NCBI GenBank assembly: GCA_030606485.1
Contig: JAUWGH010000001.1
Span: 1-32,000 of the forward strand
Length of the DNA stretch: 32,000 bases
Direction of reading: 5' to 3'
Source: Promethearchaeota archaeon
Lineage (GTDB): Archaea > Asgardarchaeota > Lokiarchaeia > Sigyniarchaeales > SOKP01
Positions 11,795 to 15,610 of this stretch are shown here, in pieces. The notes beneath the pieces were generated by a model. That model was not told where the DNA came from, did not search any database, and was given only the letters and a program-made list of their open reading frames with translations. Numbering within the stretch: the stretch's first letter is position 1; every line of letters begins with the position of its first letter. A program made the position numbers and the translations under genes.

Positions 11795-13060
11795 CTATTT
11801 TTTCAAAATCTGCTTCTCTTTTGAATCGAGTTGCAACCAATCGCTTATTTCTTTTTTTATTTTTATTGATTTTGAGGATAATAATTTGAGGAATGGAATT
11901 ACAGTTCTTGTTGCTTCAATAGAGGATATTTCATATACATCCTCAATTTTTTTTGCTAAAGAAAGTTTATCTCTGCCAATTCTACTTGAAATAATTTCAG
12001 GAAAAGTAGTTTTTACGAATTTTGGTGTATAACTCCTCTTTTTTGCAAGAGAGACACCTCCACCAAATAAATCAAAAAAATAAGGCAGTAAAGCCCAATT
12101 TTGATATTTTCTTATTCGACCAAATATTTGGTCTGCAGTGGAAATATTTTCAAACGCATCGACCAGTTCAACATTTAAATTAATATATTTCGGCAAATTT
12201 TCATTAACCCATCTATATAATAAATCATAATTCACATCTGATTTATCAAGTAATCTTTTTGCATCGATTAATGTTTTTACTTCTGTAAATAGAGACCGTA
12301 TTAGAGAAAAAATAAGTTCAGAGGTATCTCTTTGAAGTTCATCTAAATTTTTAAGAGATTCAGCGCTTCTTCCACCTTGCATTAATCCTTGGAGATCATT
12401 TATGGAAGCACGTAGATCACCATTGTTTTTTTGAGCAATAGAAATTAAATCTTTAGGTTTAAAATCATTTATATTTTCTCTTTTAAGGATTTTTTCTAGT
12501 ATTTTAATAACAGCTTCCTCAGATAAGGGTTGAACTTCAAATTTTCTTACTTTTTTATATATTGGATTTAAACTTCTCTTATATTCATTGGCGATCATGA
12601 CAATTGGAAATTCACTATTAATCATAATTTCCAAAACAGTTGGAATCGCTCCTTTATCACTAACTCCATAAATTCCATCTATTTCATCGATAAGGATTAT
12701 TTTATTTTTTGATTTAAATATGAAATCCATCATATCTCTTGCTTTAGAAGCTTCATCTAATTTCTTTTTTAGTGATTTTTGCGTTCGAGTATCAGATGCA
12801 TTTGTTTCTATTACTTGCATGTTTAGATCATTGGCTATAGCATAGATAACAGAAGTTTTCCCGATGCCTGGTGGTCCTTCAAGTAATACTGCCTTTTCTT
12901 TACTCTCTTTTTTAAAATTTTTAATAAATTTAATTAGCTCATCAATTAAATCGACCTTTTGTCTATTAACTTTTGCAACTGGTTTTGCCATCTCCTTTAT
13001 AGATTTTGGGCGATACTTCTCAACCCAAGGTAATTCAGACTTTTTTTCTATCTCTTCCAA
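11795..13060 (-). CDS. rfcL: Replication factor C large subunit
   Basis: PWVEKYRP, Walker A GPPGIGKT, ETNASD, Walker B IDEIDG, GDLRASIND, WVNENLP, ADQIFGRI; TTG start. Confidence 0.92.
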   Translation of the reverse strand: MEEIEKKSELPWVEKYRPKSIKEMAKPVAKVNRQKVDLIDELIKFIKNFKKESKEKAVLLEGPPGIGKTSVIYAIANDLNMQVIETNASDTRTQKSLKKKLDEASKARDMMDFIFKSKNKIILIDEIDGIYGVSDKGAIPTVLEIMINSEFPIVMIANEYKRSLNPIYKKVRKFEVQPLSEEAVIKILEKILKRENINDFKPKDLISIAQKNNGDLRASINDLQGLMQGGRSAESLKNLDELQRDTSELIFSLIRSLFTEVKTLIDAKRLLDKSDVNYDLLYRWVNENLPKYINLNVELVDAFENISTADQIFGRIRKYQNWALLPYFFDLFGGGVSLAKKRSYTPKFVKTTFPEIISSRIGRDKLSLAKKIEDVYEISSIEATRTVIPFLKLLSSKSIKIKKEISDWLQLDSKEKQILKK

Positions 13061-13084
13061 AATATTGTTCCTTATTGATTTAAA

Positions 13085-14131
13085 TTAAAATTTTTCAGAT
13101 AACAGACACATTTTCGAAATTAAATTAGAAAGTTGAATATCATCATCTTGACCATCAATACTTCTAAAATCAGCGTCGGCAATATAATTAATATATTGAA
13201 TCTTAATAGATTTACTAAGAGGGAATTTAATTATTTCATCTAACAATTGTTTATATATTTCTTGCGCAGAATAATTAAATTCTCTTCGAATTTTTCTCAA
13301 TTGTGTTCTTACAGCAGAAAAATCGCCTTTTAAAATAGGTCTTAAAAGTTCTTTTATTTTTTTATCCCTATCCCTATTAATAACTTCGAAAAGCACTTCT
13401 GAATTGATGTTTGTTGATATCATTGCAGATAATTGCAAAATATCGATTGCTTTATTTAATTGACCCTCTGAATACTTATAAAGAAGTCTGAGTGCTGGTT
13501 CATTGATTTTAATTTTCTCCTTTTTTAAGACTATTTCAATAAAATCGCTAAAATTTTTATATTCAACAGGAGGGATAAATAAGATTTGGCAACGAGATAT
13601 AATAGGATCAATAATTGCTGAAATTTTAGACGTAATAAGAATTATTCTACAATTAGAACCATAAGTCTCCATAAGCCTTCTAAACCCTTGCTGAAATTGT
13701 CCTAGAGTTTCAAAATTTTTCACAATTAATATTTTAAATGGAATTTCTCCAATAGCTTTTATCTGAACGAATGGTTTTACTTTTATATCTAAGAATGGAT
13801 GGATATACCTTTTCTTCCCTGCTCGACTTCCAATCATCCCTGTAGAAAATGTAGATCTAATTCCAGCTTGCCTTCTTTCTTCTTTGGATATGGGAACGTC
13901 TGCAAAAAGAGTTTTCAAATTAGATTCATAAGATCCTCCTAAAAATTCTTTAGCAAAACATTTAGCAATAGTAGTTTTTCCAACTCCGTGATAGCCGGTT
14001 AAAAGTAAATGAGGAAAATTCTTTTTTGAAATATATTCTTTTAATTGAAATTTAATTTGTTCTCTACCACAAATTTCACTTAAAGTTTTTGGTATATATT
14101 TAACCGACCAAACGGGAGAATTAATAGTCAT
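13085..14131 (-). CDS. Divergent second replication factor C small subunit (degenerate Walker B)
   Basis: WSVKYIP, PHLLLTGYHGVGKTT, IIDPIISRC and the RFC C-terminal collar are retained; Walker B reads IVKNFET and sensor 2 reads GQLNKAID. Confidence 0.88.
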   Translation of the reverse strand: MTINSPVWSVKYIPKTLSEICGREQIKFQLKEYISKKNFPHLLLTGYHGVGKTTIAKCFAKEFLGGSYESNLKTLFADVPISKEERRQAGIRSTFSTGMIGSRAGKKRYIHPFLDIKVKPFVQIKAIGEIPFKILIVKNFETLGQFQQGFRRLMETYGSNCRIILITSKISAIIDPIISRCQILFIPPVEYKNFSDFIEIVLKKEKIKINEPALRLLYKYSEGQLNKAIDILQLSAMISTNINSEVLFEVINRDRDKKIKELLRPILKGDFSAVRTQLRKIRREFNYSAQEIYKQLLDEIIKFPLSKSIKIQYINYIADADFRSIDGQDDDIQLSNLISKMCLLSEKF

Positions 14132-14137
14132 TGTTAT

Positions 14138-15136
14138 TTATTTCAACTCCCTACTGATCATATTAAATAATGCATTTAATTGAATTTCTGAATTAGAACC
14201 TTGAGTTATTCTAAATTCGTATTCTCCAAGGTAACTATAAATTCTTGCTAAATTTATATTATTTAAACCCTTCTCTTGAGATATTTTTAATAACACTTGT
14301 CTCATTAAATTCCTACTTGAGTATCCACTAAGACTTTTAAGTATCTCTTTTAGATCATCAATTTTGCCTAGTTTTAAAGCATTAAATAATTTTTCTAGGA
14401 TTTCTGGTTTGAAATAGCCCGAGATTGAATAAATTTCATCAAGTTTTAGATCATCAATAATTTCTAAAGCAACAGTCATTTGTAATGCATTAATTGCTTT
14501 TCTAAGATCTCCCTCACTGATGAAAAATAATATATTTAACAATTTTTCTTGATTCTTTATAGTGATGTTTTCTTTCTTTATTATAAATTTTAAACGAGAA
14601 TTTATTTTCTCTTTATTTAATGGTGTAAATCTTAAAACTGCACATCTTGAAATAAGTGGATCTATAATTCGGTTTATATTATTACACAAGAATATAAAAA
14701 TTACATTTCCTGAAGATTTTTCTATGATTCTTCTTAATGCCTGCTGAACAGTTCCAGGTATATTATCTGCCTCATCAAGAATCACAATTTTACCATGATT
14801 CTCTTCCGAATCTAGTGAAATGATTGATTGATTAACAAATTTTTTTAAAATATTCCTAACATATTCCATCCTGACATTATCAGAGGCATTTAGTTCTAGA
14901 AGAAGCCCTTTCTTTTTACAATCATTACCTAATAATTTATGTGTTAAAATTAAAGCCGAACTTGTTTTACCTGTTCCGGCAGGACCAGTAAAAATAAGAT
15001 GAGGAACTGTTTTACTATTAATAAATCTTTTCAAATTATTAATTGCGAGATTCTGGCTAATAATATCCTCGAATTCCTGTGGTCTATATTTCTCAACCCA
15101 AGGAACATCTAATAAGGATTCATTATCCAATGCCAT
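14138..15136 (-). CDS. rfcS: Replication factor C small subunit
   Basis: PWVEKYRP, GPAGTGKT, LELNASD, ILDEAD, LISRC, GDLRKAINALQ. Confidence 0.95.
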   Translation of the reverse strand: MALDNESLLDVPWVEKYRPQEFEDIISQNLAINNLKRFINSKTVPHLIFTGPAGTGKTSSALILTHKLLGNDCKKKGLLLELNASDNVRMEYVRNILKKFVNQSIISLDSEENHGKIVILDEADNIPGTVQQALRRIIEKSSGNVIFIFLCNNINRIIDPLISRCAVLRFTPLNKEKINSRLKFIIKKENITIKNQEKLLNILFFISEGDLRKAINALQMTVALEIIDDLKLDEIYSISGYFKPEILEKLFNALKLGKIDDLKEILKSLSGYSSRNLMRQVLLKISQEKGLNNINLARIYSYLGEYEFRITQGSNSEIQLNALFNMISRELK

Positions 15137-15160: not shown

Positions 15161-15610
15161 TCAGAATTTTAACTCCAGTACTTCATATTTCTTTTTAAAT
15201 TTATATTTTTCATAAAGCTTAGCTGCTTTCAGCGCTTCTTCTTTAAGATTTATTTTAACTCTTTGAACTTTGATTTTCTTTAGATGATTTAGAGCCTCTT
15301 GTAGCAAATATTCTCCAACTCCTTTTCCTCTATACTCTGGACTTACAAAAACTAACTTTATATATCCTTCACTTAAGCCATAGGGATCAACCCTCAATTC
15401 AGCGACGATCATCCCTGCTGGTTCGCCAGTTTCTATATTTTCTGCTAAGAAAATACCATGCCTTTGCAATGGATCATATAATCTTCTTGATATACCCCAA
15501 TCAAACCTTCGTTCATCAAAATTTTCTCCTAAATCAGAAACAAGTTGACTAACAAACTGCTTTAACATCTCTCTATCATCAGGAGTTCCGACTCGAATAC
15601 GAACGTCCAT
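15161..15610 (-). CDS. GNAT-family N-acetyltransferase
   Basis: Acetyl-CoA motif A VFVSPEYRGKGVG and A.KLYEKYKF. Confidence 0.9.
   Translation of the reverse strand: MDVRIRVGTPDDREMLKQFVSQLVSDLGENFDERRFDWGISRRLYDPLQRHGIFLAENIETGEPAGMIVAELRVDPYGLSEGYIKLVFVSPEYRGKGVGEYLLQEALNHLKKIKVQRVKINLKEEALKAAKLYEKYKFKKKYEVLELKF

Follow-up and report, generated by a model that had tools for sequence, protein, structure and literature searches.

The RFC system of Lokiarchaeales has been described in Ca. Harpocratesius repetitus, in which an rfcS3-rfcS2-rfcL operon was reported with the canonical rfcS1 located elsewhere (Feng et al., 2025; Nat Ecol Evol 9:2333, PMC12680538). RfcS2 in that system carries Walker A and the arginine finger and lacks Walker B, and RfcL lacks the arginine finger (PMC12680538). 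All four RFC subunits of Ca. H. repetitus were recovered by tandem-tag co-purification, and AlphaFold3 (AF3) models assign RfcS2 to the E position and locate its insertion within the DNA chamber (PMC12680538). The physical place of RfcS2 in RFC, facing RfcL, has been published only for this organism, from the co-purification and the AF3 models (PMC12680538). The phylogeny and topology tests of the same study group eukaryotic RfcE with RfcS2 and RfcB/C/D with RfcS3, and the view of this system as an intermediate toward the eukaryotic heteropentamer is a published hypothesis (PMC12680538). This description was restated in a 2026 review. The system can be regarded as a living clamp loader of a form intermediate between the archaeal 4S+1L complex and the eukaryotic heteropentamer, and is used in arguments on eukaryotic replisome assembly.

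The operon and the RFC genes of the genome

The window, i.e., the whole stretch of 32,000 nucleotides that was analysed, contains a Lokiarchaeales-type rfcS3-rfcS2-rfcL clamp-loader operon (Table 1). The three genes are co-oriented, all encode RFC proteins, and are separated by 6 nt (rfcS3/rfcS2; 14132-14137) and 24 nt (rfcS2/rfcL; 13061-13084); the minus-strand ORF coordinates thus confirm the three-gene operon proposed in the initial annotation. The rfcL gene starts with TTG, with AAGGAA 8 nt upstream, and its product scores 319.7 bits against the archaeal RFC large subunit model NF003229, above the curated cut-off of 280. The neighbouring GNAT gene may be co-transcribed with the operon. A sigma-70 promoter scan returned 28 sites against 30.4 expected, a model that is uninformative for an archaeon.

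Table 1. Coordinates of the operon genes, their conserved neighbour and the diagnostic regions of RfcS2 (positions in the window).
Feature	Position	Strand	Remarks
GNAT acetyltransferase gene	15161..15610	minus	24 nt upstream of rfcS3; conserved neighbour
rfcS3	14138..15136	minus	332 aa; first operon gene; GPAGTGKT, DEAD, SRC and GDLRK all intact
rfcS2	13085..14131	minus	348 aa; middle gene; putative ATPase-dead small subunit, predicted E-position
rfcL	11795..13060	minus	421 aa; third gene; Walker A/B intact, no SRC finger (KKV)
RfcS2 Walker A, GYHGVGKTT	13970..13996	minus	Lys kept; GPPG relaxed to GxxG
RfcS2 basic insertion, residues 79-112	13796..13897	minus	follows beta-strand 2 ('NASD'); position of the E-plug in eukaryotes
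RfcS2 degenerate Walker B, KNFE	13709..13720	minus	replaces DEAD; checked by translation
RfcS2 sensor-1 position, ITS	13628..13636	minus	replaces (S/L)CN or CN(Y/N); Asn lost
RfcS2 arginine finger, SRC	13589..13597	minus	retained; checked by translation
RfcS2 sensor-2 position, GQLNK	13451..13465	minus	replaces GDLRK; Arg lost

The first operon gene had been annotated as rfcS. Against NF001679, the model of the canonical archaeal RFC small subunit (curated cut-off 303 bits), its product scores 283.8 bits and that of rfcS2 242.6 bits, both below the cut-off, and a gene on contig C5 of the same genome (G000; approximately 248071-249039) scores 429 bits, above it. Judged by sequence, this C5 gene, which is unlinked to the operon, is the canonical rfcS1, and the first operon gene, whose product shares 44% identity with it, is a divergent RfcS paralogue (RfcS3) and not the canonical rfcS. 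The genome, which is 100% complete, contains four RFC genes, including one RfcL gene, and one PCNA gene; a second clamp and a second large subunit were sought in it and neither was found. Since the canonical small-subunit gene is the fourth one, on C5, and not the gene that opens the operon, the 1L:3S1:1S2 make-up suggested earlier is incomplete.

Motif loss, insertion and conservation of RfcS2

The RfcS2 motifs were held against the solved archaeal RfcS sequences 2chq and 1iqp. Walker A and SRC are kept and Walker B and sensor 2 are degenerate, just as the initial annotation had read them, with coordinates and translations checked. The sensor-1 Asn, a residue that annotation did not mention, is also lost. 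Among 40 homologues, G46, G51 and K52 of Walker A show little or no variation, and S179 and R180 of the arginine finger are invariant. SRC is present in all RfcS2 orthologues examined (n=36). The Walker B site of the orthologues reads KNFE, KNFH, KDFD or DDFH and never contains DE. Some orthologues from the sister family carry another residue in place of the Thr of Walker A (GKME, GKLE), and nucleotide binding by RfcS2 may therefore not be universal.

The basic insertion previously noticed at the NASD region is a 34-residue stretch (VPISKEERR...KKRYIHP; 8 K/R vs. 2 D/E) that takes the place of the short NASD-ERGI loop. The conserved insertion following the NASD strand amounts to approximately 28 residues, and the motif DxP(L/I)TxEER...(V/I)S(T/S)xxxGSxAG is kept across the order. 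A PDB search with the N-terminal 135 residues of RfcS2 identified no chain matching the insertion. The AF2 model of RfcS2 has the RFC small-subunit fold (mean pLDDT 86.2), with a short helix at insertion residues 83-88 and low confidence at residues 93-106 (pLDDT 42-49); AF2 predicts no beta-hairpin in the insertion, of which the loop part is modelled with low confidence.

The same operon and the same RfcS2 motif losses were found at 30/30 loci of the same family and 6/6 loci of the sister family. Two cultured species, Promethearchaeum syntrophicum MK-D1 and Lokiarchaeum ossiferum, also have this operon and these losses, and their RfcS2 orthologues share 40-43% identity with that in the window; sister-family orthologues share 36-44%. 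The RfcS2 orthologues form a clade with 98-99 SH-aLRT support, as do those of RfcS3 (98-99), which occupy the same operon position at all loci. A locus search with a 6-sequence RfcS2 alignment retrieved Lokiarchaeales genomes and, outside that order, a single weak match in Woesearchaeota. Deep metagenomic RfcS2 subclades (P0136 type) also exist.

The loss of several catalytic motifs at once could suggest a recently duplicated middle gene that is losing its function in this genome. However, the rfcS2 reading frame is intact, and the insertion, SRC and the Walker A Lys are conserved. A search for orthologues with an intact DE Walker B gave 0/36 across the two families, and the same losses recur in all 36 and in the cultured species. 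The mean identity to other genera is 52% for S3, 51% for S2 and 50% for RfcL; S2 is thus as conserved as its operon neighbours and diverges at their rate, indicating purifying selection on S2. Lineage-specific decay was rejected given the conservation over 36 loci and has next to no probability left. As judged from these alignments, purifying selection maintains the pattern of a dead subunit across the order.

Proposed clamp loader

The operon and the unlinked rfcS1 very probably specify a heteromeric PCNA clamp loader in which RfcS2 is a non-catalytic E-position subunit (probability about 0.88). By analogy with the relative and its models, RfcS2 would be the end subunit, separated from RfcL by the pentamer gap. 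The P-loop of RfcS2 has probably kept its ability to bind nucleotide; hydrolysis is predicted to be impossible, given the loss of the acidic pair of Walker B, the Asn of sensor 1 and the Arg of sensor 2. The SRC arginine, from RFC architecture, would complete the ATP site of the D-position neighbour. The basic insertion, which belongs to a DNA-facing loop, may extend into the central chamber in the manner of an E-plug, in agreement with the published AlphaFold3 models, and may gate DNA entry. RfcL, with Walker A/B kept and SRC absent as expected there, would take the A position, and RfcS1 and RfcS3 would fill positions B to D. The motif pattern, the order-wide conservation, the RfcL without SRC, and the co-purification and AlphaFold3 models of a relative all point to the non-hydrolysing, finger-donating E-position specialist that the initial annotation had proposed; where RfcS2 sits, whether it binds nucleotide and whether it acts as a plug are judged from the relative's co-purification and from structure prediction.

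Two loaders might be present instead, one composed of S3, S2 and L and the other a separate canonical 4S+1L complex of RfcS1 with the same RfcL, so that RfcS2 would act only in a specialised complex (e.g., in repair or unloading). The unlinked position of rfcS1 fits this arrangement, as does the fact that it is still a strong canonical RfcS that is retained in relatives, and an S1+L complex is plausible, given that Methanosarcina RFCS1-RFCL complexes have some activity (PMC2880001). Against it stand the single RfcL gene and the single PCNA gene, and sequential tags on RfcL and then RfcS1 also recovered RfcS2 and RfcS3, with at least some of the complexes containing all four (PMC12680538). We consider separate loaders improbable and favour one heteromeric loader with RfcS2 at its end.

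Relationship to eukaryotic RfcE and other clamp loaders

The point most worth attention is whether RfcS2 is linked to eukaryotic RfcE by descent or by convergence. The resemblance (dead Walker B, kept finger and same-loop insertion) could have arisen independently, with RfcS2 not an ancestor-side relative of RfcE, a reading that we hold as possible but clearly the less probable one. Its rationale, equally tentative, is that in an open AAA+ spiral the terminal subunit would be freed from ATPase constraint wherever small subunits diversify. By sequence score, RfcS2 is nearest to archaeal RfcS, then to eukaryotic B/C/D, and farthest from RfcE: bit scores against PDB chains are 163-179, 84-96 and 56-69, respectively, and profile scores are 329-331, 197-233 and 153-172. 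With the whole RfcS2 chain, the top 48 Foldseek matches are archaeal RfcS and B/C/D chains and RfcE is not singled out; in the VIA fold search, B/C/D and archaeal chains reach Z ~27 vs. Z ~24 for RfcE. No similarity in sequence links the RfcS2 insertion to RfcE. In other archaeal groups, small subunits that are dead or half-dead carry insertions of unrelated sequence at the same loop. For example, a P0157-type subunit of this kind adjoins rfcL in a relative of the same class, and the euryarchaeal RfcS2 type P0201 has IFIDNAEF at Walker B and GNLAK at sensor 2. Another Asgard family has a paralogue with an insertion at this loop, again of unrelated sequence, in which the motifs are still intact.

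Descent is favoured by the published phylogeny and topology tests, which put RfcE with RfcS2 (PMC12680538), and raw similarity is an unreliable measure for fast-evolving proteins. Among PDB chains, only RfcE aligns with the RfcS2 profile colinearly through the insertion; the RfcE insertion lies at the same loop, and the profile therefore passes through it in one stretch. Our trees were quick runs on non-eukaryotic RFC sequences, a composition that counts against reading convergence from them; their deep branches lack resolution, which leaves room for convergence. Under LG+G4, all insertion-bearing subunits grouped together with SH-aLRT 82, a clade that LG+C20 did not recover; a single origin of these subunits is not claimed on that account. 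Because the PDB and fold scores are not nearest to RfcE and dead, insertion-bearing small subunits appear to have been built independently in other archaeal lineages, convergence keeps a minority share of the probability. Dead, insertion-bearing end subunits may have arisen repeatedly in archaea, in which case the likeness of RfcS2 to RfcE could reflect convergence or long-branch attraction; we put this forward with some doubt. If true, the likeness would be no evidence for derivation of the eukaryotic E subunit from a Lokiarchaeia-like donor.

Compared with eukaryotic RfcE (yeast Rfc5, human RFC3), RfcS2 shares the predicted non-hydrolysing state, the kept P-loop, an SRC arginine directed to the D site and an insertion at the same loop. 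It differs in that its sequence score to RfcE is the lowest among PDB RFC small-subunit chains, with a slightly lower fold score, and in that its insertion bears no relation in sequence to that of RfcE and is modelled as a short helix and a low-confidence loop, not as a beta-hairpin like the eukaryotic E-plug, which fills the DNA chamber.

Euryarchaeal RFC small subunit 2 (NF009067/PRK12402) is likewise a single specialised subunit ending the small-subunit chain, and Methanosarcina acetivorans RFCS2 is part of a 3:1:1 complex (PMC2880001). P0201, a member of NF009067 (426 bits), combines degenerate Walker B and sensor-2 motifs with an equally long insertion region at the same loop, whereas RfcS2 in the window reaches 191.8 bits and falls short of the curated cut-off (317). 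The two insertions differ entirely in sequence, no supported joint clade is formed under the better model (LG+C20), and there are two types of small subunit in the euryarchaeal systems but three in Lokiarchaeales. With delta-prime of the bacterial gamma complex, RfcS2 shares only distant homology (~47 bits to delta-prime models). Delta-prime (HolB) is an ATPase-dead AAA+ end subunit that gives an arginine finger to its neighbour, and the analogy is functional.

The locus is closest to the Lokiarchaeales system of Feng et al. (2025), with which it shares the gene order, the unlinked rfcS1, the motif pattern and the insertion at the E-plug site. Nothing essential differs, and the operon in the window comes from a different family within that order. 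The doubt about novelty voiced in the initial annotation was justified: its observation is correct but is a rediscovery of a system already known, with biochemistry, since 2025 (PMC12680538). Beyond that study, the present analysis adds the sensor-1 and sensor-2 loss, the insertion motif, the equal divergence rates and the conserved GNAT neighbour. Collectively, the window contributes one more family-level member of the described system and not a new kind of system.

RFC genes of the window and its genome

Three RFC ORFs are arranged head-to-tail on the minus strand of the window, whose G+C content is about 27–29%. The window lies on contig C10 of a 3.75 Mb genome that is 100% complete, and the nearest relatives of its RFC proteins are found in Promethearchaeota/Lokiarchaeota MAGs. 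Two RFC small-subunit-like proteins and one large subunit were identified in the operon with Pfam and NCBIfam; RfcL scores 319.7 bits on the large-subunit model NF003229 (cut-off 280). The rfcS3/rfcS2 junction reads TAA-ATAACA-ATG (6 nt) and the rfcS2/rfcL junction TAA-24 nt-TTG, with AAGGAA 8 nt ahead of the TTG. This start is needed for rfcL because the first downstream ATG would drop the conserved PWVEKYRP box. The gene after rfcL is convergent, and the operon therefore ends at rfcL. The rfcS3 start is preceded by GGAG, and 24 nt separate rfcS3 from the end of an upstream GNAT acetyltransferase gene. In most loci of the order rfcS3 has a GNAT homologue next to it; the two genes share an orientation in the window's family and in two sister-family loci and are divergent in Promethearchaeum. 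Two short antisense ORFs are most probably spurious, given how AT-rich the DNA is.

A whole-genome search with RfcS3 as query revealed one more RFC gene, the fourth, on contig C5. Its product shares 44% amino acid identity with RfcS3; it scores 429 bits on NF001679, the canonical archaeal small-subunit model with a cut-off of 303, and reaches 327 bits against Pyrococcus RFCS. RfcS3 falls short of the NF001679 cut-off with 283.8 bits and scores about 200 bits against archaeal RfcS. On these scores the C5 gene is assigned as the canonical rfcS (rfcS1), so that the operon reads rfcS3-rfcS2-rfcL with rfcS1 unlinked. The initial annotation, which labelled the first operon gene rfcS and missed the C5 gene, is corrected on both points. 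One RfcL and one PCNA are encoded in the genome. At its arginine-finger motif the rfcS1 product reads SRA in place of SRC, which preserves the arginine.

Coordinates of RFC genes and neighbouring features (window positions unless a contig or fetched locus, L0xx, is named)
Feature	Location	Strand	Remarks
rfcS3	15136..14138	-	332 aa
rfcS2	14131..13085	-	348 aa
rfcL	13060..11795	-	421 aa, TTG start
GNAT acetyltransferase gene	15161-15610	-	
Short ORF	12864-13088	+	antisense to rfcL/rfcS2
Short ORF	14562-14747	+	antisense to rfcS3
rfcS1	contig C5, about 248071-249039 (L002:1489-2457)	+	
Standalone RFC small-subunit paralogue, one other Asgard family	L043:2953-4167; L045, L047, L048, L049, L055	+ (L043)	about 370 aa
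RfcS2-like gene, same-class genome G237	L050:3045-3965	-	directly upstream of rfcL
rfcL, G237	L050:1773-3041	-	

Motifs and conservation of RfcS2

The motif states of RfcS2 were read by aligning it with its neighbour and with the sequences of solved archaeal RfcS (2chq, 1iqp). Walker A (GYHGVGKTT) and the SRC arginine finger are retained, with KNFE instead of DEAD at the Walker B site, ITS instead of (S/L)CN at sensor 1 and GQLNK instead of GDLRK at sensor 2. The alignment confirms the motifs first described for the middle gene and adds one detail, the missing sensor-1 Asn. Residues 74–115 stand in place of a canonical 14-residue loop, a net insertion of ~28 residues that is rich in Lys/Arg (8 K/R vs 2 D/E in residues 79–112). 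The AF2 model has a small-subunit fold and is confident overall (pLDDT 86.2); in it the insertion forms a short helix (83–88) followed by a low-confidence loop (93–106).

In a search of 301 genomes from the phylum, S2 was matched over its full length with at least 36% identity in 64 of 68 same-family genomes and 6 of 7 genomes of a sister family in the same order, and matches elsewhere were at paralogue level only. The S3-S2-L order is present in all fetched loci of the family (30/30) and sister family (6/6), and also in Promethearchaeum syntrophicum MK-D1 and Lokiarchaeum ossiferum. Orthologues with an intact DE pair, named beforehand as a sign of lineage-specific decay that would refute the initial reading, were looked for; every S2 orthologue examined has KNFE, KNFH, KDFD or DDFH instead, and the reading is not refuted. 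All of them keep GxxGxGK and SRC and lack the sensor-1 Asn and sensor-2 Arg. The insertion contains a conserved motif, DxP(L/I)TxEER...(V/I)S(T/S)xxxGSxAG. S2 is conserved like its neighbours, with mean identities to other genera of the family of 52% (S3), 51% (S2) and 50% (RfcL). The same motif losses in all orthologues, together with this matching identity, rule out lineage-specific decay. Judged from these comparisons, S2 is a non-catalytic protein under purifying selection. Apart from the two corrections to the gene set, the initial interpretation holds at its core.

Deep metagenomic dead-RfcS2 subclades were also identified among the protein representatives (P0136, P0137, P0147, P0154, P0222 and relatives; 33–38% identical to the window S2); none of the scanned GTDB species genomes contained anything that matched them closely. 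A related cluster, P0128, carries the submitter label Bathyarchaeota.

RfcE and other insertion-bearing small subunits

As a single sequence, S2 scores 163–179 bits to archaeal RfcS, 84–96 to eukaryotic B/C/D subunits and 56–69 to RfcE, the eukaryotic E subunit (yeast Rfc5, human RFC3); a 40-sequence profile gives 329–331, 197–233 and 153–172, respectively. Fold comparison gives Z about 27 for B/C/D and archaeal chains and about 24 for RfcE. Only RfcE chains align unbroken with the S2 profile through the insertion (4–347 vs 6–351), where all others break; RfcE thus carries a stretch of additional residues there, similar in length. This alignment favours a link between RfcS2 and RfcE. The insertion has no sequence match in the PDB, which speaks against a shared origin.

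Several further small-subunit groups, drawn from other Asgard genomes and from representatives at 50% identity, have insertions at this loop. The standalone Asgard paralogue has a 65-residue region there, longer than that of S2, with Walker B (DEAD) and sensor 2 (GDLRR) intact. A second insertion-bearing type has dead motifs, and one example, the RfcS2-like gene of the same-class relative G237, adjoins rfcL. This gene has degenerate motifs and a different insertion type (YYExY..W.E.AK...KRxGxS..P); its match includes one in-frame TGA. In the euryarchaeal RfcS2 type (P0201), which scores 426 bits on the euryarchaeal small subunit 2 model NF009067, Walker B reads IFIDNAEF and sensor 2 reads GNLAK. 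The insertion sequences compared across these groups are unrelated to each other. Trees built after deleting the insertion columns give strong support (98–99) to the dead clade whose insertion region spans 43 residues; the grouping of this clade with the other insertion-bearing groups has a support of 82 under LG+G4 and is absent under LG+C20. Dead or insertion-bearing types thus occur in several groups with unrelated insertions, making recurrent evolution of E-like subunits plausible, and the resemblance to RfcE may be convergent; as the trees cover archaeal sequences only, this qualifies the link to RfcE and is no finding in its own right.

Proposed role and comparison with known systems

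Each ATP site in the RFC spiral is completed by an arginine finger from the subunit that follows. No subunit follows the last one (E) to complete its own ATP site, yet E must give a finger to D, and the first subunit (A) has no need of one. RfcL keeps Walker A and B and has KKV instead of SRC. In their motifs, RfcS2 (finger kept, hydrolysis residues lost) and RfcL (no SRC) present the E and A pattern. RfcS2 would still bind nucleotide and probably occupies the E position, where its insertion may serve as a chamber plug.

The operon with a dead S2 is already known. The same system was described in Lokiarchaeales, with an rfcS3-rfcS2-rfcL operon, rfcS1 elsewhere, an RfcL without arginine finger, and an RfcS2, 'akin to the eukaryotic RfcE', in which Walker A and arginine finger are present and Walker B is absent (Feng et al., 2025; PMC12680538). 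In Ca. Harpocratesius repetitus all four subunits co-purify via RfcL and RfcS1 tags, and AlphaFold3 models place RfcS2 opposite RfcL with the insertion at the E-plug site (PMC12680538). Feng et al. proposed that the eukaryotic stem received an rfcS3-rfcS2 pair from a lineage resembling Lokiarchaeia (PMC12680538), and a 2026 review restates their account. A specialised single end subunit has been known in Methanosarcina and haloarchaea since 2005–2010 (PMC2880001). Since the system matches the description by Feng et al., the present finding is a correct rediscovery.
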